Source: Halorussus marinus
GTDB taxonomy: Archaea > Halobacteriota > Halobacteria > Halobacteriales > Haladaptataceae
NCBI RefSeq assembly: GCF_004765795.1
Contig: NZ_SBIV01000007.1
Span: 124,001-188,000 of the forward strand
Length of the DNA stretch: 64,000 nt
Direction: 5' to 3'
Translations under genes and position numbers: made by a program
Notes under the pieces: generated by a model
Told to the model about the DNA's origin: nothing
What the model saw: only the letters and a program-made list of their open reading frames with translations
Database searches by the model: none
Part shown: one piece after another, positions 31 through 18,886 of the stretch
Numbering within the stretch: the stretch's first letter is position 1
Layout of the letters: every line of letters starts with the position of its first letter

Positions 31-75
31 TCTTACCAAACAATAGCAATCTTCACACCTATTCGTTAGGTAAGA
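31..75. repeat. Inverted-repeat site copy 1 (TCTTACCAAAC-N23-GTTAGGTAAGA)
   Basis: Arms at 31-41 and 65-75; the same arms recur at 10191, 16974 and 18841. Confidence 0.85.
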
Positions 76-212
76 CATCGTCTCGAAACATCATATCACC
101 ACGTTCTCCCCGTTAGTCAGCCAAAAGACCGAAGTTAGGATTGCTAAACTCAAATGGGAAATGTGTTTCTAGCACCCAAACTACTATGTGGTCGTAGTGT
201 GCCAAACAAATT

Positions 213-863
213 ATGCGCCTCACGGAGGCTCGTGAAGGGAAAACCAGAACCCAGGTCCTTGCGGCCGTCGCAGACTTACAGCGGAGCGATGGCCCGCCGA
301 TCCAGAAGGACCTCGTTGAGAAGCTCCCGATGACGAAGGGTGCCGTCTCACAGAACTGCAGTCGACTCGTCGAGGAGTCACTACTGCAAGAACACGATGG
401 CCGGTATCGCGTCGATACAGGCCGTCTCCTCGATGATTATCGAGAGCACTTCGAGGAATACCTGCGACGCGCACCACAGAGTGAGCTCTACGAGCAGGAG
501 GTAGCAGATACCAACGAAACCCGCACGCGGACCAAGCGCTCGGCGACTGAGTACTTCGAAGCCGACCTCCTCGAAGACATCCTCCTCACGTCGCTCGTGA
601 GCTCGCTCGGAAAGAACAATATCCAGACCCTCCGGGAGGTGTTCCTGTACACGGACGATATGCTCTACCACGTCGCCTACCGTGCTGTGAGCGCGGAGAC
701 CGACGTGCCAGCAGAACTGAAGCCGATCCTCAGGCTGGCGGCGTGTCTGGACACCAGTCCTGACCTGGTAGAAGAACTCGCGAACAGACACGGTCTCCAC
801 GCCGAACTCGCTGGCCAGTCGCCGGCGACCGAGATCGCCAAACACGCCTACGGAGGAGCCTAA
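213..863 (+). CDS. Winged-helix (MarR-like) transcriptional regulator heading the type I R-M operon
   Basis: N-terminal HTH (IQKDLVEKLPMTKGAVSQNCSRLVEESLL); stop lies 2 nt before hsdM. Confidence 0.7.
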   Translation: MRLTEAREGKTRTQVLAAVADLQRSDGPPIQKDLVEKLPMTKGAVSQNCSRLVEESLLQEHDGRYRVDTGRLLDDYREHFEEYLRRAPQSELYEQEVADTNETRTRTKRSATEYFEADLLEDILLTSLVSSLGKNNIQTLREVFLYTDDMLYHVAYRAVSAETDVPAELKPILRLAACLDTSPDLVEELANRHGLHAELAGQSPATEIAKHAYGGA

Positions 864-865
864 CT

Positions 866-2371
866 ATGTCAAAGATCACCTCGTATACTGACTCGATCAC
901 GCTGGAAGAGCTCGAAAACCACCTGTTCGAATGTGCGGACATCATCCGCAACACCGTCGACAAGACCGACTACAAGGACTACATTCTCCCGATGGTCTTC
1001 TACAAGACGCTCAGCGACACGTACGAAGACCAGCGGGAGGACGTCCTCGAGGAGTTCGGCGACGAGGAAATCGCCGACGACCCGAGTTTCTACGACTTCC
1101 CGATTCCCGAAGGCTACCGGTGGGCCGAGCTCCTCGATACGAACAAGAACGTCGACGAGTTCCTGAACGAGGCGTTCGAGGCGATCGAACGGGAGAACCC
1201 GGAGCTGCAGGATGCGTTCCGGGCCGACTACGTGAGCGCCGACGCACTGGACGACGACCGCCTCAAGGACCTCGCCCACCATCTCGACACGTACAATCTG
1301 AGCGCCGAACGCGTCCCGCCGGACATGCTCGGCGAGGCGTATATGGACCTCGTGAAGCACTTCGCCAGCGAGGAGGGGAAGGAGGGCGGCGAGTTCTTCA
1401 CCCCGCCGAATATCGTGAACATGATGGTCCGGCTTCTCGCACCCTTCGAGCCGGGCGATTCGTTCCACGACCCGACCTGTGGCTCCGCCGGGATGCTTGT
1501 CGAGGCGGCCCGGAACTTCCGGGAGGAGCAAGACGGCGATCCTACGAAGCTCCGGCTCACGGGCCAGGAGATGAATCCCGACGTCGCCGCTATCGCGAAG
1601 ATGAACCTATTCATCCACCGGTACGAGGGCGAGGTCGCACGGGAGGACTCGCTTCGCAATCCGCAGTTCACGACCGGCGACGCCGACCTCGAGACCTTCG
1701 ACTACGTCCTCGCCAATTTCCCGTTCTCGGCTGATTGGGCGAAAGACCAGCTGCAAGAGGACAAGTTCGGGCGCTTCGACTGGGCCAATAAGCTCCCCCG
1801 TGCGGATCGTGGCGACTATTCCTTCATCATGCACATGGAGGAACAGCTCAACGAGACAGGGCAGGCGGCGATTGTTGTCCCGCACGGCGTGCTGTTCCGA
1901 AAGCACGAGCAGCGGTATCGAGAGCCGATGATCGACCGCGACATCGTTGAAGCGGTGATCGGCTTACCCGAGAACCTGTTCCAAAACAACTCGATTCCGT
2001 CGGCGATTCTAGTGCTCAATGAGAACAAGCCCGAAGAGCGAGAGGACGAAGTGCTCTTCGTTCACGCTGCGGACGAGGCTTTCTATCGGGAGCTCTCGAA
2101 TCAAAACGAGCTTACAAACGAGGGGCTGGACCACGTTGTCGAGAACTTCGACGCGTGGAAAACAGAAGAGCGGGTGAGCCGTGCTGTCCCGCATGAGGAA
2201 ATCCGTGAGAACGACTATAATCTCAACCTCGCGTTGTATGTCGACACAACCGAGCCCGAGGAAGAGATTGATATAAGTCAAGAAGTGGAAAAGTTACACG
2301 AATTACGTGCTGAACGGGATCGGATAGAGAGTCGTATGGATGAGCACGTGGAGGTGTTGGGATATGAGTGA
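866..2371 (+). CDS. hsdM: Type I R-M methyltransferase subunit M1
   Basis: GEFFTP, motif I DPTCGSAGML, motif IV ANFPF, PHGVLFR, C-terminal YNLNLALYV. Confidence 0.95.
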   Translation: MSKITSYTDSITLEELENHLFECADIIRNTVDKTDYKDYILPMVFYKTLSDTYEDQREDVLEEFGDEEIADDPSFYDFPIPEGYRWAELLDTNKNVDEFLNEAFEAIERENPELQDAFRADYVSADALDDDRLKDLAHHLDTYNLSAERVPPDMLGEAYMDLVKHFASEEGKEGGEFFTPPNIVNMMVRLLAPFEPGDSFHDPTCGSAGMLVEAARNFREEQDGDPTKLRLTGQEMNPDVAAIAKMNLFIHRYEGEVAREDSLRNPQFTTGDADLETFDYVLANFPFSADWAKDQLQEDKFGRFDWANKLPRADRGDYSFIMHMEEQLNETGQAAIVVPHGVLFRKHEQRYREPMIDRDIVEAVIGLPENLFQNNSIPSAILVLNENKPEEREDEVLFVHAADEAFYRELSNQNELTNEGLDHVVENFDAWKTEERVSRAVPHEEIRENDYNLNLALYVDTTEPEEEIDISQEVEKLHELRAERDRIESRMDEHVEVLGYE

Positions 2372-3638
2372 CGACGCAAGTCAACAGACAAGTCTGGACG
2401 AGATCGTGGGAGAGTACAATAGAGAGACAGAGGACGAAGCAGTAGATGCTGGTAAACTCCAAGAAATAGATGAATCTCCCGTAGAGGGATGGGAATTGTG
2501 TCGGTTGGGAGAAATATTTTCCTTAGAGTACGGGGAAAACCTCACAGAAGACGCACGGGACGGCGGTCAATATCCCGTTTACGGATCTAATGGACTGGTA
2601 GGTAGTCACTCGGAAGCTTATGTTGATTGTCCTGGAATAATTGTTGGGAGAAAGGGATCGATAGGAGAAGCCGAGTTTTCCGAAGGCCCATTCCACCCAA
2701 TCGATACGACATATTATATCAGCGAATATGAGACGGATGAAAATCTTCGATTTGTACATTATCTCCTTGAGAATATACAGTTAAGTAGGTTAAATGCAGC
2801 ATCAGCAATTCCAGGGCTAAATCGAAATGATGCTTATAGCCTGAAAGGCCTCCTTCCCCCTCTCCAAGAGCAACGTAAAATAGCGAGTGTGATCTATAAC
2901 GTTGATAAAGCGATACAGAAGACAGAAGAAATCATTCAACAAACAGAGCGATTACATACCGGGCTAAGGAGAGAGTTAGTGATAGCGGGGATTGATCATA
3001 CTGAATTTCAAGAGATGCGGGTAGGTCCATTCACCTTAGAAATCCCAGCAAGTTGGGATATTGTTTCTATTGATGAAGCTTGTAAAAACTTAGACAGAGA
3101 CAGAATACCCGTTAAACAAGCAAAAAGGGAAGAAATGCAAGGAGATATCCCTTATTACGGAGCATCAGGTATCATTGATTATGTTGATGACTACCTCTTT
3201 GATGATGATCTAATTCTCCTAGCTGAGGACGGCGAAAATCTACTCTCGCGAAATCTACCAATCTCCTTTAAGATATCTGGCAAAGCATGGGTGAATAACC
3301 ATGCTCACGTACTCAAACCGAGAGAAGGGTTTGATATTGATTATCTAGTGGAATATTTCGAACGATTGAATTATGAGCCGTTTGTGACTGGATCTGCCCA
3401 ACCCAAATTAACACAGACCAATATGGATATGTTGTCAGTACCCAAGCCTCCTGAAGAAGAGCAGACCGAGATCTCGTCAAAACTGACCTCCGTTTCTGAT
3501 CACAAGAATAGAAGTGAGCAATATAAACAACAACTACAGCGATTAAAAAAAGGTCTTATGCAAGACCTCCTCTCGGGCAAGGTTCGAACTCACAGCAAGG
3601 ACATCGAAGTACTCCCAGAGGTGGAAAAACATGATTAG
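2364..3638 (+). CDS. hsdS: Type I R-M specificity subunit
   Basis: Two TRD-like halves (YPVYGSNG / IPYYGASG) with conserved repeats LPPLQEQRKIA and KPPEEEQTEIS...LKKGLMQDLL; ATG at 2364 overlaps the hsdM stop; AT-richer than its neighbours. Confidence 0.92.
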   Translation: MSDDASQQTSLDEIVGEYNRETEDEAVDAGKLQEIDESPVEGWELCRLGEIFSLEYGENLTEDARDGGQYPVYGSNGLVGSHSEAYVDCPGIIVGRKGSIGEAEFSEGPFHPIDTTYYISEYETDENLRFVHYLLENIQLSRLNAASAIPGLNRNDAYSLKGLLPPLQEQRKIASVIYNVDKAIQKTEEIIQQTERLHTGLRRELVIAGIDHTEFQEMRVGPFTLEIPASWDIVSIDEACKNLDRDRIPVKQAKREEMQGDIPYYGASGIIDYVDDYLFDDDLILLAEDGENLLSRNLPISFKISGKAWVNNHAHVLKPREGFDIDYLVEYFERLNYEPFVTGSAQPKLTQTNMDMLSVPKPPEEEQTEISSKLTSVSDHKNRSEQYKQQLQRLKKGLMQDLLSGKVRTHSKDIEVLPEVEKHD

Positions 3639-5145
3639 ACATCGTATGCTAACCGATGGTGGTTCTAACGCTCTAGTCAATGCCTTTGAAGAATGTATAA
3701 ATGAGATGGAATCTGACGATGGAATAGATAAGACGGAATACAGAGAGTTCCTGCTTCCTCTCGTCTTCTATAAGACCGCCAACGATACATACCAAGACGA
3801 GTACGAGAACGCCGTCGCCGATTTTGGAGAAGAAATTGCAGGTGAGGATCCTGCTTTCTATCGGCTTCAGATACCGGATGGTCTTTTTTGGGAAGATCTA
3901 ATGTCTACTAATAAGCGGGTTGATGAGACCCTGAATGAAGCTCTTGAATCATTTGAGGAATTAAATTATGATCTCAAAATATCCTTTGAAGTTGATTATC
4001 TATCATTCGATATTAACGAATCGACGCTTAAGACTCTGCTCCAAGAGTTAGATACAATCAATCTGAGTGTCGAGAGTGCTGATTACCAAGCAGTCTCGGA
4101 GGCATACATGGGCCTAATACGGAGATTTGCGGAGGAAGAAAACAGGGACGCTGGGGAGTTCTACCAACCGGAGGAGGTGATAGAGATGGTTGTTCGGATG
4201 TTAGCCCCTTTCGAAGATGGTGACTCATTCTATGATCCAACTGCTGGCTCTGGGGACATGCTGGTCGGCGTTGCGAGCCATTATCGAAAGGAAGGCAGAG
4301 ATCCAAATAAACTGACGCTCGTCGGACAAGAATCGATTAAAGGACTGACAGAAGCTGCCAATCTCAATTTCTTTTTGAACGATCTTGAGGCAGAAATCGA
4401 GGCTGCAGATCCCCTAAATGATCCGATGCAAACGAGCGATGGATCACTGCGGGAGTTTGATTACGTCCTTACCAACTTCCCCTACTCCGAGGATTGGAAC
4501 AAATCCGGGTTGAAGGATGACGCCAGATTCGGGCACGTCGACAAAGATCCCCGCAAAAATCGCGCTGATTACGCCTACATCCTACATATGTACAGTAGTC
4601 TGAACGAGACAGGGCAATTAGCCACCTTGGCACCCCAAGGAGTCCTTTTCAGAGACAACGAGTCTCCGTTCCGGGAATTCCTGATCGACGAGGACCTTGT
4701 CGAGGCGGTTATCAATCTACCAAAGAAGCTGTTCGGTGAAGACACGGGGATTGCCCCTGCAATCTTGTTCCTCAATAAGGACAAGCCCGAAGAGCGCGAA
4801 GGGGAAGTGCTATTCCTCAACGCCGCACACGAGGACTTCTACCGAGAGCTCGATAACGAAAATCAGCTGACTCCGGAAGGCGTCGATAGAGCAGTTGAGA
4901 TATTTAACGAGCGGGTATCAAAAGAACGCAAGTCGAGAGTGGTCGAGGTTGAGGAGATAGAAGAGACGGACTATAATCTCAATCTCGCACTCTACGTCGA
5001 CACCACTGAACCCGAAGAGGATATAAATACGATAGTCGAGGCACAGGAGTTAGCCAAGCTCGAAACCGAACTCTCGGAGATACGTGACCGGATGAAACAC
5101 GATCTCCGAGAGCTGTATGGCGAGGGAGTAAACCAGTATGAGTGA
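3631..5145 (+). CDS. hsdM: Second type I R-M methyltransferase subunit M2
   Basis: GEFYQP, motif I DPTAGSGDML, motif IV TNFPY, PQGVLFR; collinear with M1; overlaps hsdS and hsdR. Confidence 0.92.
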   Translation: MIRHRMLTDGGSNALVNAFEECINEMESDDGIDKTEYREFLLPLVFYKTANDTYQDEYENAVADFGEEIAGEDPAFYRLQIPDGLFWEDLMSTNKRVDETLNEALESFEELNYDLKISFEVDYLSFDINESTLKTLLQELDTINLSVESADYQAVSEAYMGLIRRFAEEENRDAGEFYQPEEVIEMVVRMLAPFEDGDSFYDPTAGSGDMLVGVASHYRKEGRDPNKLTLVGQESIKGLTEAANLNFFLNDLEAEIEAADPLNDPMQTSDGSLREFDYVLTNFPYSEDWNKSGLKDDARFGHVDKDPRKNRADYAYILHMYSSLNETGQLATLAPQGVLFRDNESPFREFLIDEDLVEAVINLPKKLFGEDTGIAPAILFLNKDKPEEREGEVLFLNAAHEDFYRELDNENQLTPEGVDRAVEIFNERVSKERKSRVVEVEEIEETDYNLNLALYVDTTEPEEDINTIVEAQELAKLETELSEIRDRMKHDLRELYGEGVNQYE

Positions 5146-8107
5146 CACCAGTCCCGAACCTGTCGAAACGCCCAGCGAAACCGGCGTCGAGATCGATGTC
5201 CTCCAGTGGCTCGATGAGATGGGCTGGGAGACGTACGGGAAAGACGGCGGCTACGGCGCGACCGTCATAGACCAGCAGTATGACCGCGATCTCTCTGAGG
5301 TCGTCTACTGGGAGATCCTCAAAGAGCAGCTCATCGCGCTGAACGAGAAGTTGGACGAGCGGGAGGCCGACCGGTTTCTCAACTCGTTGCAGCGGGAACT
5401 TCGGACCGAGAACCTCGTCGCGGCCAACGAGAAGTTCACCCAGCTCCTCAGAAACGGAAAGAAGCACACCTACGACGACGGCGAGACCGAATACGTCACC
5501 CTCGTCGATTTCGAGGAGCTCGACGAAAATCGGTGGATAGCAGCCAACCAGTTCCGCGTTCATCGGGAGAAGGCGATCCGGCCCGACGTCGTCTGTTTCG
5601 TCAACGGCATCCCGCTCGTCGTCTGGGAACTCAAGTCGGCTACCCAGGGAAACACCTACCAAGATGCGATCACGGACCTCGTCTCGTATCAGGACGATGT
5701 GCCCCGGCTCTTCGTCCCGGTGCTGTTCAACGTCGCTGCCGACGACCTCGAGTTCAGGTATGGCTCCGTGAACGCGCCGGCGGAGCACTACTACCCCTGG
5801 CGCGATGACGACACGGACCTCGGCAACGACCTCAAAGAGGCGGTCGTCGCGCTCTTCCAGAAGCAGGTGCTGGCGGATCTCCTCGACAGGTACGTCTTCT
5901 ACGAGGAGGCGGCCGGCGGCGATCTCAAGATCGTGCCGCGATACATGCAGTACTACGCGACCGAGGCGATCCTCGACCGCGTCGAGGATCCGGACAATAA
6001 TAGCGGGCTCGTCTGGCACACCCAAGGGAGCGGAAAGTCGTATACGATGGTCTTCGCGGCCTGGAACCTGCTGGAGCGGAGCTTCCTCGACAATCCGCAG
6101 GTCCTGCTCGTCGTCGACACCGACAAGCTCAGGACCCAAATGGAGAACACTCTCTCCAACATCGAGTTCCCGCGGTTCGAGGTCGCGGAGAGTATGGATC
6201 ACCTGCAGGAGCTGCTCGAAGAGGGCAGCAGCAAGCTCGTGCTCACCACGATCCAGATGTTTGAGGACGTCGACGCCGAGGTCCAGACGAACGATGAAAC
6301 CGTCGTGTTCGTCGACGAGGCCCACCGGTATATGGAGAAAGACCTCGGGATAAGCCTCCAGGCGGCCATCCCCGACGCCCAGCACTTCGGCTTCACTGGT
6401 ACGCCCGTCCGAGAAGAGGAGAGAGACACCTTCGACAACTATTCGCCAGAAGGAGAGGAGACGCTTCACCAGTATTCGATCAAGGACGGGATCGACGACG
6501 GCGTCGTTCTCCCGGTGCATTTCGACGTGCGACAGCAGGAGTGGGAGATCGACGAATCCGCGCTCGACGAAGAGTTCGAACGCTCCTTCGCTGATCTCGA
6601 CGTCGAGGAGAAAAGCGAGATCATCCGCAAGCACGTCACGCGCTCCGAACTCGCAGAGCTACGGCCGCGCGTCGAGAACGTCGTACTCGATATCGTTGAC
6701 CACTACGAGGAGAAGGTCGAGCCCAACGGCTGGAAATCGATGGTCGTCACACCCACCCGTCGCGCGGCGGCGCTGTACGGCGAGGAACTCCAGAAACTCC
6801 GCGACCCCGAGGATATCGAGGTCCTCGTGACCTCGCAGGGTGACGACGAGAAGCTCATTCAGAAGTTCCACACGACGAAAGAGCAGCGGGAGTCGATCGT
6901 CCAGCGGTTCAAGAACCCGGACGAATACGAGGACGACCCGAAGATCCTCGTCGTCTGTGATATGCTCCTCACGGGCTTCGACGCCCCACTCCTGAAGACG
7001 ATGTATCTCGACCGGAATCTCAAGAATCACAATCTCCTCCAAGCGATCGCCCGCACCAATCGGCCCGCCGACGGCAAGGTGAACGGCGAGATCGTCGATT
7101 ACGCGGGCGTCTTTGCGAGCGGCAACATCGAGGACGCACTCGAGTACGACGCCGAAACGCGCAACCACGCAGCGAAGGACGTCGACGAACTCCTCGACGA
7201 CTTCGAGGACCTCCTCGCAGAGACGATGAATCTCTTCGAGGAGGTCGAGAAGGTCGACAGCCAGGAGGCAGTGAACAACGCCGTTGCGCTCGCGAACGAA
7301 CATAGGGCGGAATTCGAAGACAACTACGCCCGATTGCAGGACATGTACGAGTCGATCGCCCCCGACAAACGGCTGGAGACACGGGGACTGCGGGACCCGT
7401 ACCAGTGGCTCAACCGGATCCACCTTGCCTATCGGCGGAGTCAGCGCGACCCGGACCCCGAAGAGGACGTGCGGGAGAAGACGCTGGAGATCATCGAAGA
7501 GAACGTCGACGTCGGCGAAATCAAGAACAATACGCCGATCTACAAGATCAGCGAAGAGCACCTCGAGAAGGTCCAGGACCTGGAGCCGAAGGCGAAGGCC
7601 ACCGAGATCGCCCATGCCACGCAGGACCACCTGCAGGGCCGCCGAACCACGAACCCCCGGTACCAGCGCATCAGTCAGCGCGTTGAGCAGCTGGTGAACG
7701 ATTGGCGGTCGGGTGAGCTGGAGGCACCGGAAGTCGCAGAAGAACTCGAAGAGGCCGAGAAAGAGGCTCTCGCTGTTGGTGAGCAACGGGACGAACTCGA
7801 TATGTCCGAGACGGAGTATGCAGTCTACTCCGCTCTCACGGACAGCTACGATGTTGCGGATGATGAAGCCGCTGCGATTGCTGCGGACATCCTCGACGGC
7901 TTCGAGGAGATCGATACCGGCTTCGACGGCTGGCATATGAGTGACCGCGTCCGGAAGGAGATCCGTCAGACGGTGATTCGCACACTGGTGGGCGAGCACG
8001 ACCGGAAGGACCTCTACGACAAAGAAGGGCTAGTCAGAGAGATTGTCGAGTACCTGATCCGCAACGAACAGGCCGAGCCCGACGAGTCTGCACCAGCGGG
8101 AGGGTAA
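5138..8107 (+). CDS. hsdR: Type I restriction endonuclease subunit R
   Basis: Nuclease RPDVVCFVNGIPLVVWELK, Walker A HTQGSGKS, DEAH, FTGTP, QAIARTNR. Confidence 0.95.
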   Translation: MSDTSPEPVETPSETGVEIDVLQWLDEMGWETYGKDGGYGATVIDQQYDRDLSEVVYWEILKEQLIALNEKLDEREADRFLNSLQRELRTENLVAANEKFTQLLRNGKKHTYDDGETEYVTLVDFEELDENRWIAANQFRVHREKAIRPDVVCFVNGIPLVVWELKSATQGNTYQDAITDLVSYQDDVPRLFVPVLFNVAADDLEFRYGSVNAPAEHYYPWRDDDTDLGNDLKEAVVALFQKQVLADLLDRYVFYEEAAGGDLKIVPRYMQYYATEAILDRVEDPDNNSGLVWHTQGSGKSYTMVFAAWNLLERSFLDNPQVLLVVDTDKLRTQMENTLSNIEFPRFEVAESMDHLQELLEEGSSKLVLTTIQMFEDVDAEVQTNDETVVFVDEAHRYMEKDLGISLQAAIPDAQHFGFTGTPVREEERDTFDNYSPEGEETLHQYSIKDGIDDGVVLPVHFDVRQQEWEIDESALDEEFERSFADLDVEEKSEIIRKHVTRSELAELRPRVENVVLDIVDHYEEKVEPNGWKSMVVTPTRRAAALYGEELQKLRDPEDIEVLVTSQGDDEKLIQKFHTTKEQRESIVQRFKNPDEYEDDPKILVVCDMLLTGFDAPLLKTMYLDRNLKNHNLLQAIARTNRPADGKVNGEIVDYAGVFASGNIEDALEYDAETRNHAAKDVDELLDDFEDLLAETMNLFEEVEKVDSQEAVNNAVALANEHRAEFEDNYARLQDMYESIAPDKRLETRGLRDPYQWLNRIHLAYRRSQRDPDPEEDVREKTLEIIEENVDVGEIKNNTPIYKISEEHLEKVQDLEPKAKATEIAHATQDHLQGRRTTNPRYQRISQRVEQLVNDWRSGELEAPEVAEELEEAEKEALAVGEQRDELDMSETEYAVYSALTDSYDVADDEAAAIAADILDGFEEIDTGFDGWHMSDRVRKEIRQTVIRTLVGEHDRKDLYDKEGLVREIVEYLIRNEQAEPDESAPAGG

Positions 8108-8108
8108 C

Positions 8109-8840
8109 ATGGGTGTGGGCAATACGAGGGCCACAGCCGAAATCGAGATCGCCGGCGAACAGATTGAGTATCGGGTGGTCGAGAGCGCTGACGCGACCCA
8201 ACCCCGGATCGACGTCGACATTCACGAGGTCAAAGTGGTCATCCCGGAGGATGGCGCCGTCGACCCGCACGAATTCGTTCGCGAGAACACTGACTGGCTC
8301 GCTCGGAAATGGCGCAAGTACGACGAGTACCGTGAGCGAGCCCCGGACAGGAGGTTTGAACCCGGCGAGACGTTCCCGTACCAAGGTGACGACCACACTC
8401 TTCGCGTCCGGGACGTGGATGAACACGAAATCACCGACGGGGAGATCGTTCTGGCCAAATATGCCGTCGAGGAGTCATCCATCCAAGACGAGTTAGAGGC
8501 GCTCTTTCGAGAGCAGGCCCGGACGCTCTTCGAGGAAGTAGCAGCGGAGCACGCCGACGAAATGGGTGTTGAGTACGAGGGGCTCGCCGTACGGAACCAG
8601 CGAACGCGATGGGGGAGCTGCTCCCCAAAACAGAACCTGAGCTTCAATTGGCGACTCATTATGGCGCCGCCAGAGATCGCAGAGTACGTCGTCGTCCACG
8701 AACTCGCCCACCTACGGGAGCAGAATCACACCAACCGCTTCTGGCGTATCGTCCGCGAGCAGCTCCCGGATTACCGCGAACGGGCCAACTGGTTAGAAGA
8801 GCACAGCGTGGAGCTCATCTTTACCGAGGACGATCTGTAG
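8109..8840 (+). CDS. M48/SprT-like zinc metallopeptidase (YgjP/DUF45 family)
   Basis: RWGSCS and VVVHELAH motifs; usual position after hsdR. Confidence 0.88.
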   Translation: MGVGNTRATAEIEIAGEQIEYRVVESADATQPRIDVDIHEVKVVIPEDGAVDPHEFVRENTDWLARKWRKYDEYRERAPDRRFEPGETFPYQGDDHTLRVRDVDEHEITDGEIVLAKYAVEESSIQDELEALFREQARTLFEEVAAEHADEMGVEYEGLAVRNQRTRWGSCSPKQNLSFNWRLIMAPPEIAEYVVVHELAHLREQNHTNRFWRIVREQLPDYRERANWLEEHSVELIFTEDDL

Positions 8841-8842
8841 TC

Positions 8843-9418: not shown

Positions 9419-9559
9419 GCAGTGACAACCGTCCCCCTTGATATTATGTGATTATGTAGGCCCCGAAAATTGGCGCGTTTGCTATTCTGACTCACCACCA
9501 TATTTAAAATGGTGAATACTTCTACGGGAAAGTGAGAAACGATACTCAAGTACCGGATT

Positions 9560-10094: not shown

Positions 10095-10190
10095 CAGTCA
10101 GGTTGTCACCTACTTCCCCCACCGACTGCTTATCTATTGTTGAATCGCGAGGTAGCCCCTGAAGACAGAAACGGCACAGCCGTGACTCTT

Positions 10191-10237
10191 TCTTACCTAA
10201 CATTAGTCGTTGTCCCGGATACAATTGTTTGGTAAGA
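10191..10237. repeat. Inverted-repeat site copy 2 (TCTTACCTAAC-N25-GTTTGGTAAGA)
   Basis: Arms at 10191-10201 and 10227-10237, between the two tbp genes. Confidence 0.85.
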
Positions 10238-10282
10238 CAGTCAGTGAAGAGCCGATCCACATCGCATTTCGACAGGGGCCAT

Positions 10283-10831
10283 TCAGACGACGGCTTGAAT
10301 CCGCCCTCCAAAATCGTCGACCGCTTCGGAGACAGCCTCCAGATCGGTGAGTCCAGTACAAAGGAGTTTCCCGCTCGCGAAGACGAGGATCACGTGGTCC
10401 GCTCCACGATACATCAGCGCTGGGAACTGCTCGGGCTCGTACTCGACGGCGTCCATCCCCAGCTCAAGGGTGAGCAGTTCCAGCGGAATCGGCGAGCCGA
10501 GGTCGCTCGTCGCCACGATATTGCTGATTTCAGCCGCCGGCTCGTACTCGAAGTCCAGCAGCTCACGCATAACCGCATTCACACGGTCGACCATCGTTTC
10601 GAAGTGCTCGATGGACCGACAGCCAGCGATCGAACAGCGCCCGGTCCGATAGAAGGCGACGTACGTGTCGTCGGGGGCAAAGCGCGTCTGTAACCAGTGG
10701 TTATCGGCCGGTTCGTAGGTGACGTCCGTAATTTCGTCCCGCTCGTCGAACGTCTCAGCAAGCGCCGCGAGGTCGAGTTCCTGCTGATAGGTGATCATCC
10801 CGACGACGTTGGCGACCTCGAGCTCCGTCAC
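10283..10831 (-). CDS. tbp: Divergent TATA-binding protein (TBP-A)
   Basis: Two TBP repeats: ANVVG...ELDL...FYRTGR and SNIVAT...YEPEQFPALMYR...LVFASGK; GTG start preceded by GAGGT. Confidence 0.85.
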   Translation of the reverse strand: MTELEVANVVGMITYQQELDLAALAETFDERDEITDVTYEPADNHWLQTRFAPDDTYVAFYRTGRCSIAGCRSIEHFETMVDRVNAVMRELLDFEYEPAAEISNIVATSDLGSPIPLELLTLELGMDAVEYEPEQFPALMYRGADHVILVFASGKLLCTGLTDLEAVSEAVDDFGGRIQAVV

Positions 10832-10940: not shown

Positions 10941-13838
10941 TCAATCCCCCTCATTCATGAATTCCTCGAAGGTTTCGGGAACCTCCTCGTCCTCGGTCTG
11001 TTCTTCGTAGTCAAGCGAGTCGGCTTCGAGAATTCCCAGAAAGACCGGCCCTTCATCGGTGACGGTGATCATGTGGTCGGCATCATTGATGATGATGCGA
11101 CCGCCGCCGCGGAGGCGGTGGACGTACTCGGCAACCTCCTCGACTTCCGGAGTCGTGATATACTGACGGCCATCGGCTGTGTCACGAAACGGACGTCCCT
11201 GAGTGTCGACGCTCACAGTCCGCCCACGACGAGGCCCCTCATATGGATCCCCACGTACGAGGTCGGCCGGATCGGGAATCTCCGGTTGTTGATACGCAGA
11301 GACGTCCGGTTCGTGCTCCTTCGAAGGGCCCTCCAGTTCGCCTTTGATGATTTCGTCGCTGGTCTCCCACTTGTAGTAGTGATGGGTGCCGCCGATTTCG
11401 GCCTCCCAGTCGACTTCCTCGAAGATTCGTTCGTCAACTGTATCCTGGGCATAGAGCACGTACAGCGTCGAGGGCTTGTCCGGATCGTGGCCGGTTCGCA
11501 GGATGCGCCCGAGTGTCTGGATGCGATCACGGACGTTTCCAGACGAGACACGAATGATCCCAACGTCTGCCGAGGGGACGTCAACCCCTTCCTTGAGAGC
11601 CTGGACACTCAGCATCACGTTCGCAAACCCTTCGTCCCGGAACCATTCGATTCCCCACTCGTTCCACTCCGAATTGCGGTGCCCGGAGTGGTACATCACG
11701 GGTGCGTAATCGCGACGGAAAAACAGGTTTTCGAGGTCGCGATTGATATCGTCGAGTTCGTCCTCGTACTGTTGGTAGAGACTCGCCCGTTCGCTCTCCT
11801 TCGAGCCATACTTGCCCGTTTGGGTCTTCTCATCCCGCTGATCATACGGGGCGACCATCTGCTCCAGGTGTTTGATTCGTTCCTGGAATACGATCGTCTT
11901 CTTGTCCTCTTCGATTGCGTCCTCGAGGAGACGGTGTGTGATCGCTTGTCGGGAAACCGCCTCGGCGATCAGCTCACGCCGCCGTTTCGTGTACTCGAAG
12001 AAGTCGGCAATCGCCGGCGTCGGCGAGTCCGTCGACTCGCGAATCGTCTGTAGATTCTGTGAATAGTTTCCCCGCAATTCGGCGAGTCGGTGGCCGTGGC
12101 GCGCTTCAATATCCCGAACAGCGGATGACACCTTCTTCGAGAACTGTTCGTAGGTGTGACGTTCGGCCGGCGTTAGCTCGAAGCCGACGTAGTTGATGGT
12201 GAACTCGGAGATGAGGCCGCGGTCAGCTCCCTCGTCGTAACTCAGCCTGTAGAAAAGCGAGCCCAAGTTCTCGAGAAGGAACTCGTCGTCATCGGTGAGT
12301 TCGTCGTTCTCCGGATCGATCGTCGACAGCGGTGTCGCAGACAGCCCCATCGTCGCAGTGTTGGGATATTCGAGGACTTTCGAGTGGACATCTCCCGTAT
12401 ACCGGTGGCACTCATCGGCGACCAAGAGGTGCTCATCAGTATCGGCAGCGTCGAGCGACTGGGCCAGGAAATCGTCCTTGACAGCGGAGTTGACGATGCT
12501 CACGATGATGCGACGGTCACTATGATCGTCTTTGTGGCCTCCTCCCGCCCAGCCGATCTCCGACGGAGGGACGTTCAATTTCTCGAGGAACTCGCGGAGC
12601 CACTGGTGCATCAACACCTTCGTCGGCACAACAACCGTGACGACGCCGTCGGGATGCTTGTCCAGCCACTCGTCGATGGCACCAAGCGCCATCACCGTTT
12701 TACCGGCCCCCGTCACCACCTGCGCGATACCGCGTTCAGATGGGCTGGCCTCGTTGTCGAACCACGTGTCAATCGCTTCAGACTGCCAGTCGTAAAGCGA
12801 AAATCCAGCAGGGAACGTGTACGGTTCTCTCTCCTCGTCAAACGCATTTCTGACGTCCCGGCGGGAGATACCGGGGCTCGCCGCTGAGAGGAGGTCCTTG
12901 GCTTCCGCCTCGGTCTCGGCAGCGAGGATGTCCTCGAGTGTCTCGGCATAGAGTCCAGCGAGATCGCGGCCGTCGATATCATCGAATTTCGCTTTGATTT
13001 GTTCGCTGAGGGTGTCTCGAATGCGTTCATCCTCCTGGTATTCTTCGGACAGATGAATCTGGGGATGAGCCACGTCGCTCTCACGCGACGTCTCACGAAC
13101 ATAGTCGTCGAGGAAGCGGTTGTACAGGCTGCGGTGCCGTCCCCACCCACCGGACTCCCGGTACATGTAGTACTTTACGAGCGCCTGTTTGATGTCAGCA
13201 GCTGGGACATCGAACGTCGGGCCCCGATGATGGATCCACCGTTCGAGGTTGTGGAAGATGTCGACATCCCGCCACCGACCCTCGTAGGTGCTCGATCTAG
13301 GGCCAGGAACGTAGCCGTCGTCGGTTTCCCGGAGCGCACCGAGCTGAGTCAACAGTTCCGGATAGCCGCGTATCCCAGCATCGTTGTACTCGTATCCAAA
13401 CTCGTCGGTCAGCCGTTCACGAATCTCTCCCGCTTGTAACGGCCGATCAGCGTGTCGAACGACGTAATGCGCATCTCGGAGCCCTTCAATTCCTTCCGGA
13501 TAATTGCCTTGGAGAACCCAGCTCTGTTTGATGCCACGCCAGAGGAACTCCGCATACTCGATGTCGCTGTCGTGGAACCGGCGCGCGAACTCCCAGACGG
13601 TGATCTTATCGTCGCGTTCTCTGAGGACACCCATCTGGATGAACGTGGACAGTGTTCGTTCGATATAACTCGGCGAATACCGGCTGCCGTCGGGTTTGCG
13701 CAAGCGCTCACGACAGCGCTCCTCGAACTGATCTCGAGTGAATTCGTTGTCGTTCTCGATAGCGATCTCTACCAGTGTCGGAACCCATTCCGGTCCGCGT
13801 TCAATCCCGAAGATCGGTGTTGGAAAACGCCGTCCCAT
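10941..13838 (-). CDS. SF2 DExH helicase (XPB/Rad25/ResIII-like) with ~340 aa N-terminal extension and a novel C-terminal repeat domain
   Basis: LYDWQ, TGAGKT, VVVPT, DECH, LSATP, EGVDVP, QTLGRILR. Confidence 0.9.
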   Translation of the reverse strand: MGRRFPTPIFGIERGPEWVPTLVEIAIENDNEFTRDQFEERCRERLRKPDGSRYSPSYIERTLSTFIQMGVLRERDDKITVWEFARRFHDSDIEYAEFLWRGIKQSWVLQGNYPEGIEGLRDAHYVVRHADRPLQAGEIRERLTDEFGYEYNDAGIRGYPELLTQLGALRETDDGYVPGPRSSTYEGRWRDVDIFHNLERWIHHRGPTFDVPAADIKQALVKYYMYRESGGWGRHRSLYNRFLDDYVRETSRESDVAHPQIHLSEEYQEDERIRDTLSEQIKAKFDDIDGRDLAGLYAETLEDILAAETEAEAKDLLSAASPGISRRDVRNAFDEEREPYTFPAGFSLYDWQSEAIDTWFDNEASPSERGIAQVVTGAGKTVMALGAIDEWLDKHPDGVVTVVVPTKVLMHQWLREFLEKLNVPPSEIGWAGGGHKDDHSDRRIIVSIVNSAVKDDFLAQSLDAADTDEHLLVADECHRYTGDVHSKVLEYPNTATMGLSATPLSTIDPENDELTDDDEFLLENLGSLFYRLSYDEGADRGLISEFTINYVGFELTPAERHTYEQFSKKVSSAVRDIEARHGHRLAELRGNYSQNLQTIRESTDSPTPAIADFFEYTKRRRELIAEAVSRQAITHRLLEDAIEEDKKTIVFQERIKHLEQMVAPYDQRDEKTQTGKYGSKESERASLYQQYEDELDDINRDLENLFFRRDYAPVMYHSGHRNSEWNEWGIEWFRDEGFANVMLSVQALKEGVDVPSADVGIIRVSSGNVRDRIQTLGRILRTGHDPDKPSTLYVLYAQDTVDERIFEEVDWEAEIGGTHHYYKWETSDEIIKGELEGPSKEHEPDVSAYQQPEIPDPADLVRGDPYEGPRRGRTVSVDTQGRPFRDTADGRQYITTPEVEEVAEYVHRLRGGGRIIINDADHMITVTDEGPVFLGILEADSLDYEEQTEDEEVPETFEEFMNEGD

Positions 13839-13871
13839 GATGTTAGTCGACAGTCATTATTTGAGGGTGCG

Positions 13872-14762
13872 CTACTGATCCGGGTCCATCGCACTGTCTC
13901 CGAAGTAGCTGTTGTCAGTGACCACTGGTTTCGGAACGATCCCTCCGTCGAACTGTGAAATATGACCGAGATACACGGGAAGGAGACCGTTCGCAGCGGC
14001 CTCACTCTCAGTACGGTTCAGTCGACGAGTTACAAGTCGGCGTTCAGCATTCGACGCCGTTCGTTCCCACTCGTCGAAAGCGTCGCGGATCCGTCCCCGT
14101 TCGCTTGAGGGGACTGTATCGCGATCGACATTCCCCCAGATGTGACCGTGTTCGTTGATATAGATCCGCCCGCCCTCTGGACGGAGAGATTTGTACGCCG
14201 CAACAAGTTCCGGATGATCAAAGGCCGATTCAAAGCGGTAGTCCTGCCAGCTCCATCGGAGCACATCATCTGTACAAACCGCCCAAGTCTCGCCGTGATT
14301 GAACGGGAGGCCCGTCCAGATTTCCACGGCGTTCGTGTTGCTGGGCGGCGTAGGGTCGTTGGAGATCTCCTCGAAATCAAAGTCGCCATCGAGCTTGCCG
14401 ACATAAACGGGGATATGACCACGGTTAGCACGGGCCTGCGAAGTCCGTTGATACTGGTCAGCTGGGACTTTTGTCAGTACTTCCCCGGTAGCGGTCAGCC
14501 GAAAGCTCCCACGCCCGTTGGTTTTCCCGAGTTCGGTGAGGGCAGTTTTGAGTCTGCCCGGCCGTTCGGTCATCGCCTGGATGTCGCCCATGTGGCTCCA
14601 CTGGGCCACATCACCGAACTTCCGGGACGAAACGATACTGTATTTCGAACCGCGATATGCAGAGGGCCACGGATGTCCCGGTTCAACCGTCAGCTGTCGC
14701 CGGTTGACGGTCGGGACCTGGGTCGGCTCCTGCCTGAGCGACCCGTTTCCCTCAGCGCTCAT
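13872..14762 (-). CDS. Hypothetical protein with two copies of the novel repeat domain (paralogue B)
   Basis: PGHPWPSAYRG...GSFRLTATGEVLTKV...PVYVGKL and GGRIYINEHGHI...PVYLGHI; ATGA overlap with the upstream gene. Confidence 0.8.
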   Translation of the reverse strand: MSAEGNGSLRQEPTQVPTVNRRQLTVEPGHPWPSAYRGSKYSIVSSRKFGDVAQWSHMGDIQAMTERPGRLKTALTELGKTNGRGSFRLTATGEVLTKVPADQYQRTSQARANRGHIPVYVGKLDGDFDFEEISNDPTPPSNTNAVEIWTGLPFNHGETWAVCTDDVLRWSWQDYRFESAFDHPELVAAYKSLRPEGGRIYINEHGHIWGNVDRDTVPSSERGRIRDAFDEWERTASNAERRLVTRRLNRTESEAAANGLLPVYLGHISQFDGGIVPKPVVTDNSYFGDSAMDPDQ

Positions 14763-15646
14763 CGTGACCCCTCCCCCCGATCGTCGCGGCGGTGATCGTC
14801 TTCCGAGAGATCGCTCTCTTCGTAGGACCCCATCGCGGCGACCCAGGCCTCTAACGAGGCTTCCTCTTGCTCAGAGAGCGGATCGGTCAGCCGGGTCGGC
14901 TCTTCGACTTCGATCGGCCGCTCGTCAGCGGAGAGATGGCCAACGTAGACGGGGACCATATCGACGTTGCCGCGGTCGCGCCGAAGCTGGAGGAACCGTT
15001 TCACCGGGCGAGACAGCTCCCGGAATTGCGCTCGGATATCGGGAGGCGTTTTCTCGTTGGGGATCTGCGTGACGACGTCACCACAGGGCGTGATCACGAA
15101 CCGACCGCCGTTCATCCGAAGCCGTTTCAGCTCGTCGGTGATCTCTCGGGGCAACGTATCGGCAAATGAGTGCCGAAGCTTCGTTTCGCCGTCCTGCCAC
15201 CAGAACCGCTCGCCACTGAACGAGTACGTCGCTCCATCATAGACGCTCTTCCAGAGGTCGCCGGGATCGAGTCCGTTCGGACTGATCGGGACGGCGTGCC
15301 CCGGCTCATCACGGGGGACGAGCCGGCCGTCGAGGTCCATTTGACCGACGTACACGGTCTTGTACGCGTCTGAACTGCCGTCTCCGGTCTCGATTCGCGT
15401 GATAACGGCTCCGCCTTCGGTAACACGGAGAGCGCCACCGCTCCGTTTCAGCTCAAGCAACTCAGTGACGAGGCCGGATGGTACCGGCTCCAGGTCGAAA
15501 CGGTCGGTTCCGTTATACGCCTGCCACCAGATGTCGCCGTCCTGGTTTATGCTCAGCCCGTAGCCACGATAGTGGAACGGCCACTCATCACCAGGACTCA
15601 GCGCGTCGATCGTCGATTCGGGAGTGGATGTCTCGTTATCGGCCAT
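14759..15646 (-). CDS. Hypothetical protein with two copies of the novel repeat domain (paralogue A)
   Basis: LSPGDEWPFHYRG...GGALRVTEGGAVITRI...TVYVGQM and LDPGDLWKSVYDG...GGRFVITPCGDVVTQI...PVYVGHL. Confidence 0.8.
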   Translation of the reverse strand: MADNETSTPESTIDALSPGDEWPFHYRGYGLSINQDGDIWWQAYNGTDRFDLEPVPSGLVTELLELKRSGGALRVTEGGAVITRIETGDGSSDAYKTVYVGQMDLDGRLVPRDEPGHAVPISPNGLDPGDLWKSVYDGATYSFSGERFWWQDGETKLRHSFADTLPREITDELKRLRMNGGRFVITPCGDVVTQIPNEKTPPDIRAQFRELSRPVKRFLQLRRDRGNVDMVPVYVGHLSADERPIEVEEPTRLTDPLSEQEEASLEAWVAAMGSYEESDLSEDDHRRDDRGEGSR

Positions 15647-15665
15647 TGGTGTTAGTCTATTGAGG

Positions 15666-16802
15666 TTATGTGGATTCCGTGTCGTTGGATCGGAACGTCT
15701 CGCCGGCAGCTGTTAGTTCATAGGCAATACCTCGCTGACCGACCTGGCTCCGGTCGACCAGCCCCAGCTCGTACATTCGACTCGTGAGGCCAGAGCGAAC
15801 CGTCTCAGCCTGCGAATTCGACCACTCCGGATTCAGATAAGCCACCCGCTCGGTCAGCGACGTTGGCCGGTTGTCTCCCTCTTCGATTGCTTGAGCGACC
15901 TTTTGCATCGCCGTGTATTCTTCTTCTCGCACGCCCCGTACGTGCGAGATGTAGAACTCCTGCTCCTCCTGTGAGAGAGACGTGTCGGCGTCAACGCCGT
16001 CATCGAGAAGTGGGTTCGAGAGGCTTGCAAATTCCTGGCCAGCGTCCGTGAGCCCGATCTGCGGGGGGCTTTCTCGAACGATGTCGACGAAGGACAGGTG
16101 CGGTAGTGCCCCGGTTAATTCATCGTCGTGCTCGACGCGTCCAATGAAATGCGTCTCGAATCGATCCATCGATTTGTCGGGATCATCGCCCGTGGGCAAC
16201 GCGGCAGCGAGTTTCTCACCTCGTTTGCGCCCCGCTCGCTCGTCGTGTGTTGCGATTTCAGTCCCGATCTCTCGAGCCGTCCTCGCGGCGCGGCGCTGAA
16301 ACGGCTGGAGATCAAGCCACGGACCGTCGGGGAGCCCCTCCTCGGACGAGTCCAGCAAAGCATTCGCTAATCCCCGAACGACCAGCTTGACGGGGAAAAT
16401 ACGATTGTACTGTCCCCAGAGAGGACCTTTGTCCAACCGCGACTCGTCGGGCGGTGCAACCGTCGGAATGTCGTCGTACTGGCGTCGAGCCAGCGACAGC
16501 GTTGTCTCGTTCGTCCGATCAGCCGGCGGAGCATCGTCAGACTGTCGCTCTTGCACCTGTTCGTGAGCCGAATCGTCGGGCTGGGTGCCCTCAGGCGCTG
16601 CTTCTATTTCCGACTCTGGGTCTACAGAATTGAGGGCTTCGTCGAGTGATTTGACCTCCTGGGAAATCTCCTCCTCTTCGAGCTGGATTTGATTCTCGAT
16701 CGCCGTCCGAACGAACTCCTGTGGGTCATCGTAGCTGCCTGCAGCGACAGCGCGTTTCATCCGGCCGACGAGTGAATCGGGCACGTCTATTACGATATTC
16801 AC
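15666..16802 (-). CDS. Putative DNA-binding protein: N-terminal ribbon-helix-helix, acidic linker, C-terminal winged helix
   Basis: MNIVIDVPDSLVGRMKRAVAAGSYDDPQEFVRTAI (RHH-like); SRMYELGLVDRSQVGQRGIAYELT (wing). Confidence 0.6.
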   Translation of the reverse strand: MNIVIDVPDSLVGRMKRAVAAGSYDDPQEFVRTAIENQIQLEEEEISQEVKSLDEALNSVDPESEIEAAPEGTQPDDSAHEQVQERQSDDAPPADRTNETTLSLARRQYDDIPTVAPPDESRLDKGPLWGQYNRIFPVKLVVRGLANALLDSSEEGLPDGPWLDLQPFQRRAARTAREIGTEIATHDERAGRKRGEKLAAALPTGDDPDKSMDRFETHFIGRVEHDDELTGALPHLSFVDIVRESPPQIGLTDAGQEFASLSNPLLDDGVDADTSLSQEEQEFYISHVRGVREEEYTAMQKVAQAIEEGDNRPTSLTERVAYLNPEWSNSQAETVRSGLTSRMYELGLVDRSQVGQRGIAYELTAAGETFRSNDTEST

Positions 16803-16973
16803 CCTTTGTATCCCCTCGTACCCATTACCATACTCTATGAGTATTTATATTTTTCGTGGGTCTGTATGGGTTTGTGTGAGTACGTAAGAGAGCCCTTGAT
16901 ACGACCATTCCGGTGTTCCAGATGCTTTGCTACCTCTACCATTTCCGAGGCTTCTCCTGGAAATCCACCCGTT

Positions 16974-17019
16974 TCTTACCAAACATTAGCGGCGAGTACT
17001 GATCAGTAGTTTGGTAAGA
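16974..17019. repeat. Inverted-repeat site copy 3 (TCTTACCAAAC-N24-GTTTGGTAAGA)
   Basis: Perfect 11-bp arms at 16974-16984 and 17009-17019. Confidence 0.88.
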
Positions 17020-17052
17020 CACACCCAAAACCAGATAGTCGAGGCCAAGCAA

Positions 17053-18795
17053 TTAGAATGTGAATTGAAACTCCCCGCTGTCCATTATCGAATCGATAGC
17101 GTCTTCTCGAAGGTTGTCTCCAGCCCCTGTGATGCGTCGAGCACCCGGCGGGAACTCCCAGCCATTGCGCTTGTAGACGGCTAAGTAGTCAATCTCATCA
17201 GAACTGAAGGTTTTCGAGTTCGCATATTGAGTACCAGGACGCCGGAGTTGAACCGTCGTTTGCCGAGTTCGTTGCTGGACGTAGTGGAGAAGTCGCTCCG
17301 GGGACTCAAGGACCTCGACAAGTACCTGCAGGTCATAGATATCGCAGACGTACGGAACAGGCGTAATATCAAGTATTTTCGCGAAGTCGCGAGTCGCGAT
17401 TGACCCATACGATTCTCCAAGTACAAGCCACCGATGTGCATCCTCAAGAGTGGAGGGTTCCAAGCAGATCGTCGTCCCATCCGACGTGTCGATCTCAGTA
17501 ATCTGGCCGGATTGAACACCCGTCACCAGTCGATCAGCCTGGTGGTACGCGTCACCGATCCCTCGTTCGGTGTCCTCCTTGATCGGGTCGATGCCCCCGA
17601 AGTTTCCTTTCCGAGTCTCGGCGCGGAGCTTCTTCCCCTTACATTCGATTACAACGGGTTCATCGTCGTCGTGGAGGATCAGTATATCACCCTCCACTTC
17701 CTCTCCGTCGTACTCATAGGTGTAGTTCCGAATGATATCATCTTCCGAGAAGACCTTCAAGAGACAGTCCTCAGTCCATTCCTCGAGCCAGTCACCGAAC
17801 CGCAGCTGAAATTCGCCCTGATACTCCGAACCGATCAAATCGTAGTAGAAGGTGTTGGCGAGAGCATAGAGAACGGTACGGGGAAGCGGAAGCAAGTACT
17901 CATCACCAGTTCGAATGAACGGCGCTCGCTCTAGTGGATTCACATCTACCGGCGTGCGAAATCCGGAAGCAGTACCCGGTTCGACGGTTAGTCGTTCGAG
18001 AAAATTCTGAAAACGTGGGCTGTCGTCGCACCAGTCCACAAGAGTCTCGTCGGGCACCCACACCGCCTCGTCCGTGAGATCAATCGCTTTCTGAGAGAAA
18101 TCTAGCAATGACGGCGACCACCTCGCGACCTCCGTATCCTGTCCCTCTAATCTCGGTGTAATCCAATCCGTGAGTTCACGGGTATAGTAGACGGCATCCT
18201 CGATGGAAAAGCCGAGAAGTTCCTCCATCTCCTGCTCCCAGGGTTTGTATGCCCGGTATGCTTTTTCGAGCATCTGAAAACCATCTGCGTGACGCAGGGT
18301 CGTGAGTTCACGCCACACCATCCCGAAGTACGGATCCGCCATCGGTGAGTCGAGCGGAAGGTGTGAGCTACCCTGCCGAGCGTACCAGTTCTTGAGTTCG
18401 AGGAGATATGTCGCAATCTGCTCGAACGACTGTGGATCGGTCGTTTCAGTATCCGTCTGGAGGGTAATTCCGACGCCGAACTGGACGAGTCGCGGTGGGA
18501 GACCAGGATCTTGCTCCGGTGAGAGCTCTAGGCCAGTCGGATTCGATGGTGCGCGACTTTGATCTCCGTGCCGCAATAGACTCATTCGAAGGAGATTGTG
18601 GACATAGAACTGTGTTAGCGTCCGGCGAGTCCCATTCGTGCGAATCGTCTGAAGGAGAGAAGAGAGAATCTCATCGTGGTCGGAGTGGGCGAGGGAGTGA
18701 TTCCCGCGTTGGAGTTTCTCATCTCGGCGATGGACTTCAGAGGGGTCGAGATGTTCAGGAGAATTCACAAAGGGAGGGTCCTCATTCACGTCCAT
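17053..18795 (-). CDS. NERD/PD-(D/E)xK nuclease-domain protein
   Basis: GDWLEE...EVEGDILILHDDDEPVVIECK motif; start uncertain (ATG 18795 chosen). Confidence 0.6.
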   Translation of the reverse strand: MDVNEDPPFVNSPEHLDPSEVHRRDEKLQRGNHSLAHSDHDEILSSLLQTIRTNGTRRTLTQFYVHNLLRMSLLRHGDQSRAPSNPTGLELSPEQDPGLPPRLVQFGVGITLQTDTETTDPQSFEQIATYLLELKNWYARQGSSHLPLDSPMADPYFGMVWRELTTLRHADGFQMLEKAYRAYKPWEQEMEELLGFSIEDAVYYTRELTDWITPRLEGQDTEVARWSPSLLDFSQKAIDLTDEAVWVPDETLVDWCDDSPRFQNFLERLTVEPGTASGFRTPVDVNPLERAPFIRTGDEYLLPLPRTVLYALANTFYYDLIGSEYQGEFQLRFGDWLEEWTEDCLLKVFSEDDIIRNYTYEYDGEEVEGDILILHDDDEPVVIECKGKKLRAETRKGNFGGIDPIKEDTERGIGDAYHQADRLVTGVQSGQITEIDTSDGTTICLEPSTLEDAHRWLVLGESYGSIATRDFAKILDITPVPYVCDIYDLQVLVEVLESPERLLHYVQQRTRQTTVQLRRPGTQYANSKTFSSDEIDYLAVYKRNGWEFPPGARRITGAGDNLREDAIDSIMDSGEFQFTF

Positions 18796-18840
18796 TATCG
18801 ACTGATTGAGATGGTAATCCGATAAACCAACGCTTCCTGC

Positions 18841-18886
18841 TCTTACCAAACAATTTGTGCTATTTTGTTCCCAACATTTGGTAAGA
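18841..18886. repeat. Inverted-repeat site copy 4 (TCTTACCAAAC-N24-ATTTGGTAAGA)
   Basis: Arms at 18841-18851 and 18876-18886. Confidence 0.85.

Follow-up and report, generated by a model that had tools for sequence, protein, structure and literature searches.

Paired-arm sites at the Halorussus marinus locus

The stretch of DNA analysed here, called the window at its full length of 64,000 nucleotides, belongs to Halorussus marinus (contig NZ_SBIV01000007.1, positions 124,001 to 188,000) and carries four copies of a bipartite inverted-repeat site, numbered 1-4; this site family and the small DUF6788 proteins found beside many of its members are the subject of the present work. The window sits on a 217-kb contig (C7, 57.6% G+C) of a 3.76-Mb draft genome in 37 contigs (G000). 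As reported in a preliminary description of the sequence, the copies occupy positions 31-75, 10191-10237, 16974-17019 and 18841-18886, with cores of 23, 25, 24 and 24 bp; all are intergenic, copies 2-4 lie 45, 33 and 41 nt from the stop codons at 10283, 17053 and 18928, and there is no further copy elsewhere within the window. None of 100 shuffled windows contained a match to the motif. When all 37 contigs were scanned with up to three mismatches, a single extra site was obtained, site 0 (G000:C7:121454-121501), which lies on the far side of an OLD-like AAA gene, 2.5 kb to the left of the window. The arm family of the window is referred to as A type. The features of the region are the following.

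31..75, no strand: site 1, with 11-bp arms and a 23-bp core, between a divergent OLD-like AAA gene (left of the window) and the winged helix-turn-helix (wHTH)/type I restriction-modification (R-M) operon
213..8840, plus strand: wHTH, hsdM, hsdS, second hsdM, hsdR and YgjP-like metallopeptidase genes (context)
8843..10831, minus strand: EVE-like gene, frameshifted TBP-B and TBP-A (context)
10110..10136, minus strand: TATA-like conserved stretch, about 30 nt upstream of TBP-B and 55-80 nt from site 2
10191..10237, no strand: site 2, with a 25-bp core, between the TBP-B start and the TBP-A stop; inherited in block 9579-10876
10941..16802, minus strand: helicase operon (context); its 3' boundary (10941), 700 nt from site 2, is a recurrent breakpoint
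16974..17019, no strand: site 3, with a 24-bp core; inherited in block 10941-19033
17053..18849, minus strand: single gene between sites 3 and 4, without Pfam match
18841..18886, no strand: site 4, with a 24-bp core; preserved in three relatives and destroyed in G193
43949..45184, plus strand: tyrosine-recombinase-like gene, 25 kb from site 4 (PF13102, E 2.4e-6; PF00589, E 0.017)

Some of the gene names first proposed lost ground: the NERD label of the gene at 17053-18849 finds no Pfam match at E≤0.05, and the EVE (E 0.001) and RHH (E 0.014) labels fall under the Pfam cut-off. TBP-B is split in this assembly into two frames (9560-10087 and 9816-10094); the tandem plasmid-borne TBP paralogues (9560-10831) surround site 2, and metagenome contigs lack one base at 9830. 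Haloarcula sp. NS06 pB has a duplicate of the TATA-like stretch at 10110-10136, which may act as a promoter, along with a site-2-like copy. In the type I R-M operon (866-5145) hsdS is flanked by two hsdM genes. The helicase operon includes two paralogous genes for proteins of about 295 aa without Pfam match; 70% relatives were found in G108, ending 67 nt from a site of the sister type B described below, and in G235, where no site was found; a relative (72-74%) of the gene at 17053-18849 in G281 has no such site within the 8 kb examined.

Across 112 non-redundant halobacterial sites, 44-49 bp in length, the half-site consensus is TCTTACC(A/T)AA(C)A, and positions further inward carry little information; TCTTACCAAAC is used as shorthand for the cognate arm of the A type. 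Conservation covers about 12 bp of each arm (A at position 12 in 75%, weak beyond it), which shortens the extension to about 16 bp claimed at first. In orthologous junctions the A arms are identical at 1000 of 1012 positions, while identity is 84% in the cores and 88% at third codon positions; a second count gave 479/480 for the arms and 75% for the cores. Hypermutation of the cores is ruled out, since they diverge like third codon positions, and these sequence comparisons indicate that the cores are neutral and the arms selected. Within a site, arm agreement at position 8 is 0.54, against 0.59 for shuffled partners, and the inner positions stay at the shuffle level. In the folds of the four sites the arm stem is the sole common element, and no Rfam match at gathering score was obtained in window 1-20000. 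A hairpin or terminator was discarded on these grounds; conserved arms around neutral cores, not matched to each other above the shuffled level, indicate that selection acts on two sequence-specific half-sites. Complementarity of the cores at cassette ends, hinted at by sites 1 and 2, was also rejected, as position-8 agreement was 0.66 between module ends and 0.61-0.62 in other between-site comparisons (61 pairs).

In the genome collection 91 stretches contain the exact motif; most are from Halobacteria, others from Archaeoglobaceae, Thermococci, Bathyarchaeota and WOR-3 records. A scan of Halobacteria detected it in 41 of 401 genomes, with up to 18 copies each and none for the reversed control, and metagenomes contained at least 129 stretches with it. 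The sites are indeed a conserved, selected, multi-copy family of mobile DNA. One A site of a WOR-3 record is placed inside a wHTH open reading frame (ORF) of 289 codons (L011:10983-11028), and tandem sites 1-3 nt apart occur at L011:12874-12968 and L070:2102-2192.

DUF6788 proteins as candidate binders of the arms

Clustering of 1760 ORFs around the sites revealed as the dominant neighbour a protein of about 110-125 aa, present in 21 contig groups, followed by Orc1/Cdc6 in 18 and ParA in 13. DUF6788 is the only Pfam match of this protein, and it has no ParB domain. Of 108 distinct DUF6788-like genes in the DNA examined, 88 start at an inverted repeat with a 10-11 bp arm and a 19-27 bp core, a feature of 24 among 950 other genes; paralogues retrieved through protein similarity have other repeats with the same geometry at their starts. 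The arm type tracks the DUF6788 clade, in a tree built on few alignment columns: TTAACCAAC arms are found in 20 of 21 rows of one clade and CTT(A/G)TG(C/T)AAC arms in 8 of 10 rows of another, both with support 100/100, and in one long-branch protein within the A group both arms are changed to CTTGGTAAAC. The A type is spread over the deepest branches of the tree. At DUF6788 genes the ATG follows the arm by 0-3 nt in 31 of 40 proximal sites, and 22 of these 40 have a TATA-like word in the core, compared to 20 of 360 other site orientations. In the minimal case there is one site, at the gene's own start. A perfect 11+24+11 repeat also precedes a DUF6788 gene or operon on Thermus and Tunicatimonas plasmids (two of four bacterial loci viewed). 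Exact A sites occur in 23 of the 26 genomes with the closest DUF6788 homologue and in 18 of the 375 other genomes.

The H. marinus genome also has 17 exact sites of the sister family B (TTAACCAACA-N20-23-TGTTGGTTAA), on four plasmid-like contigs (G000:C7:1341-107546, C13, C14 and C15), and two B-type DUF6788-like genes, each starting at a site; their products, of 107-108 aa, are without the Cys/His motif, while DUF6788 proteins usually carry a C-C-C-H motif. B sites are present in 267 of 401 Halobacteria genomes, and 222 haloarchaeal plasmid records contain the B protein. Three genomes were searched for a further arm family and have 35, 33 and 13 of its sites (32 of 33 off the largest contig, C1, in G069); other families have 1-4 sites per genome. 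Several arm families coexist within one genome, following DUF6788 clades and not host lineage.

The predicted structure of DUF6788 (pLDDT 88) has two helices and a four-strand sheet; in the family the N-terminal part is a helix pair or a coiled coil and the C-terminal part a beta-meander, and no catalytic motif was seen. The domain is also found fused to one integrase fragment and, in C-terminal fusions, to DNA methyltransferases and to nucleases of the HNH, GIY-YIG and VRR-NUC types. PHROG 22659 is listed with function not known, and the Atlas search returned solely DUF6788 clusters. A possible likeness to the N-terminus of SSV1-type integrases was not supported by Pfam at E≤5. Four N6/N4 DNA methyltransferases end in a DUF6788-like domain (L111:1285-2478, L112, L113 and L114); they form a sister group to the B clade, with no repeat at the domain.

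The position of the sites relative to genes was scored with our own codon-model gene calls on 101 classifiable sites, 11 at locus edges being excluded; none lies inside a gene. The sites could be ordinary operators of a shared repressor that controls the adjoining defence or accessory genes. Indeed, operator geometry is clear at the DUF6788 gene, a gene starts on at least one side of 72/101 sites, the promoter-like stretch is co-duplicated with site 2, and site-bearing neighbourhoods often contain toxin-antitoxin, R-M and nuclease genes. However, the flanks are head-tail in 44 cases, tail-tail in 29 and head-head in 28, like ordinary gaps (background 54/22/24% for head-tail, tail-tail and head-head) and with no promoter-side enrichment; the distances to gene starts vary from -31 to 1308 nt, so that most sites do not keep the fixed distance considered at first, and TATA-like cores are rare away from DUF6788. 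Operators of this plain kind are improbable. As for the shared DNA-binding regulator that the preliminary description held as its alternative, a binding protein does lie closer to the evidence, and the candidate is DUF6788, not the local wHTH or RHH proteins.

The best explanation, to which we assign a probability of roughly 60%, is that the sites are bound, as double-stranded DNA, by DUF6788-family proteins and act both in autoregulation and replicon-wide, in a KorB-like manner. Binding is suggested by gene linkage, clade-specific arms, selection on the arms and the dispersal of the sites. A dimer or two monomers of DUF6788 would grip both arms; at its own gene, where the arms straddle the TATA/-10 box and the start codon, this would lead to autorepression. 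The other sites, at any position relative to genes, would mark the replicon for a function exerted over the whole plasmid, by analogy with KorB-OB on RK2, where global silencing, segregation and organisation, or both, are the most likely candidates; the A-type gene often adjoins orc1/cdc6 and parA, which would be in line with such a role. The window sites are orphans, because the genome lacks the cognate protein: no A-type gene was found in the 37-contig draft (best tblastn E 0.16). Haloarcula sp. NS06 pB, a close relative, combines an A-type gene with orc1 and four further sites, next to DNA matching window 19023-22284. Among orthologues of the window sites, arm damage was seen only in genomes without an A-type gene (G000, G175 and G193).

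Several points weigh against this explanation. The A-clade rows of the DUF6788 set were partly found through the motif, so linkage is inflated for that clade, and the A-type gene and the sites travel on one shared element. The distance between arm centres, about 35 bp, is large for a protein of 110 aa, and the tail-tail sites, between convergent genes, are unneeded by a plain repressor. The fold search of the model, with a best Z of 5.5 across 58 residues and nothing viral at E≤0.001, and the PDB profile search (best E 0.034) were uninformative, and the plasmid-wide role is argued by analogy. Moreover, 16 of the 41 site-bearing genomes, this one included, are without a close DUF6788 homologue and their arms are mostly perfect, which weighs against a simple decay story and makes a different, host-wide binder possible.

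Such a binder could be a chromosomal protein of most hosts, for instance XerA or another tyrosine recombinase, with DUF6788 just riding along. Some arms presumably resemble XerD arms, and genomes without the A-type gene keep their arms intact. The 11 bp of the arms also equal the dif arm length given in PMC8371274. Conversely, the coexistence of arm families in single genomes, their agreement with DUF6788 clades instead of host lineage, a spacer of 21-27 bp instead of 6 bp, and an A arm common to haloarchaea, Archaeoglobaceae, Bathyarchaeota and WOR-3 records make this explanation very unlikely.

At several loci, orc1/cdc6 and the long gap upstream of it are bracketed by two A sites (L055:7824-10387, L043:210-2268, L015:7550-10389, L024:9660-12476 and L042:1332-3456); in the haloarchaeal cases the DUF6788 gene is divergent from orc1/cdc6.

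Breakpoints and exchange at the sites

The sites were initially read as joints of three cassettes, composed of the R-M operon with the EVE-like gene and TBP-B, of TBP-A with the helicase operon, and of the gene between sites 3 and 4. For the window this found mostly no support. In the six close relatives compared (NS06 pB, G175, G206, G127, G067 and G393), homology continues across sites 0, 2, 3 and 4 and breaks off at places without sites, at about -2261, 125-131, 8840/9579, 10870-10878/10941 and 19023-19108; thus, TBP-A and the helicase operon are not a unit. TBP-B, site 2 and TBP-A are co-inherited, and so are the helicase operon and sites 3 and 4. Site 1 is an exception: at an equal distance from the wHTH block, G127 has a site whose core is different, and G127 lacks the AAA gene; in G193 site 4 is lost. 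The EVE-like gene is absent in relatives, with ends at 8840/9579; it is an insertion with no site at either end. The recombinase gene expected beside the array was found neither left of the window nor anywhere on C7 (PF00589, E≤0.001), no recurrent recombinase was seen at sites across the loci examined, and no evidence ties the tyrosine-recombinase-like gene at 43949-45184 to the sites.

Some cassette-like behaviour is nonetheless present in the wider family, and in this part the first reading keeps some weight. The sites could be active joints of a new cassette-shuffling system, where DUF6788 or a recruited host recombinase would synapse them, strands would be exchanged at the arm, cores swapped and modules of 1-3 kb moved. 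In the A family, four independent in-register ends occur at offsets 10, 12, 46 and 47, L009 has one site where G006 has two sites 1.67 kb apart, and DUF6788 stands alone between two sites in L051 and L182. Neighbouring sites in direct orientation have more similar cores (identity 0.39-0.40 vs 0.31-0.35). The B family was compared in 968 kb from 17 genomes with 96 B sites. Breakpoints fell in 30 of 79 gaps bearing a B site against 78 of 500 other gaps, and all 13 site-to-site breakpoints map at offsets 9-15 or 42-52, that is at the near arm's inner edge or the far arm's outer edge. Two independent empty/filled cases were identified, a single site in G000 corresponding to a two-gene module between two sites in G321, and a 2.8-kb unit, flanked by two sites, that G136 lacks; insertions that have a site at one of their ends account for 14 rows.

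Against active exchange, 48 A sites are spanned by at least 84% homology and only 11 have a homology end at the site, and the systematic empty/filled search in the A family gave no rows at the thresholds used. In the B family, site-to-site events are 13 of 147 intergenic breakpoints (9%), within the 7-22% that arm-arm pairs represent among intergenic 10-mer matches in five replicon pairs, where non-arm matches are overcounted as shared blocks were left unmasked. Haloferax repairs breaks by microhomology, according to PMC12281630; with such repair, and given these shares, passive exchange suffices. A tyrosine recombinase is present within 3 kb of 10 of 177 A sites and 1 of 96 B sites; the 134 proteins near thermophile and WOR-3 sites include no tyrosine recombinase and one IS607-type resolvase. 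In four metagenomes no site-to-site joint was seen among the 15 joints listed out of 25; metagenome contigs cannot reveal rare circles. DUF6788 shows no catalytic motif. Active joints are therefore unlikely. If the sites are instead bound by DUF6788 as proposed above, they would be secondary rearrangement hot spots, as repeated 10-11 bp homologies and landing points of an IS1595-family element, and their cassette-like look would follow from this. At G000:C7:56949-56990 a B-site arm supplies the stop codon of the adjoining 315-aa gene, and in relatives the slot holds other genes or a two-gene module.

The insertion sequence (IS) of the IS1595 family, which we take to be ISH4, abuts B arms: 52 matches were found in 28 of 371 genomes, 51 of them at one spacing among the eight allowed, and none in the control. 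The targeting is not exclusive, as 2 of the 10 element ends examined are at that offset, and beside A arms the DNA examined contained no IS1595 end. In one case inspected (L189:4102) the 8-bp duplication overlaps the last arm base. Family and duplication length are those given in PMC8101967; the accessible parts of PMC7002104 and PMC7193027 make no mention of such targeting. A similar behaviour is described for an IS1202-family element that targets xrs (bioRxiv 2022.12.17.520857): there too the IS abuts the arm at a fixed offset, a feature limited here to the sister B family. Fixed-offset IS targeting in archaea is apparently an undescribed case.

DUF6788 proteins might also work as stand-alone targeting adaptors, each clade marking its replicon with bipartite pads, bridging molecules and recruiting a recombinase or transposase in trans. 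This is a doubtful possibility; if true, defence modules, orc1/cdc6 origins and IS1595-family elements would be inserted or swapped at the arms, in a cassette system extending across Archaea and Bacteria that a protein of 110 aa could programme without any dedicated integrase.

Comparison with known systems

The closest parallel is offered by KorB-OB and KorA-OA of RK2, where a plasmid-encoded protein recognizes palindromic sites at and far from promoters (PMC11790492). In both systems a site at the protein's own promoter is accompanied by distal sites dispersed on the replicon, with a link to replication or partition genes; autoregulation, proposed here for DUF6788, would be a further point in common. 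However, OB is a single 16-bp site and KorB a ParB CTPase, whereas here an arm, a neutral core of 21-27 bp and a second arm are combined with a DUF6788 protein of about 110 aa, whose Pfam assignment includes no ParB/CTPase domain.

Like the pdif (xrs) modules of Acinetobacter, many two-armed sites per plasmid lie between accessory genes in mixed orientation (PMC11705084). The dif site is defined by two 11-bp arms and a 6-bp central region (PMC8371274), and closely related central regions are required; the present sites have a total length of 44-49 bp, with symmetric arms and unrelated cores of 21-27 bp. They further differ from dif/pdif in the coexistence of several arm families, in the IS1595-family element and in the low share of site-to-site breakpoints.

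Some arms fit an attC-like pattern, whose consensus we take to be RYYYAAC...GTTRRRY. As in attC arrays and the archaeal clusters of attC sites without integrase (CALINs), repeated sites are found between accessory genes with no adjacent integrase (PMC9668308). Unlike attC, only the arm stem folds, there is no second conserved box and the arms are not selected for pairing; the genes are not co-oriented (57/101 sites are head-head or tail-tail), multi-gene operons are included, and no IntI was found, C7 having none at PF00589 E≤0.001, an absence that would also be compatible with a CALIN. By the features tested, the sites are neither attC nor dif/pdif; they are not a ParB system, though they may work like one.

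No published description of the sites or of the protein was found, in a search that covered mainly open texts, with supplements and most subscription papers outside it; a literature search for DUF6788 returned no paper, the matches listed for the arm sequences were unrelated, and the accessible parts of PMC3119063 and PMC7002104 contain no description of such sites. The interpretation proposed here would provide DUF6788 with its first candidate function and DNA target, and would point to a paired-site code on most haloarchaeal plasmids, reaching thermophilic archaea and bacteria, which could explain archaeal plasmid regulation or stability; cognate protein-arm pairs with altered specificity make this recognition code testable.

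A motif formed by a T-run and a GC-rich palindrome occurs three times in the window, at 34690-34720, 38170-38200 and 39972-40002, and similar GC-box/A-run motifs adjoin several B sites.

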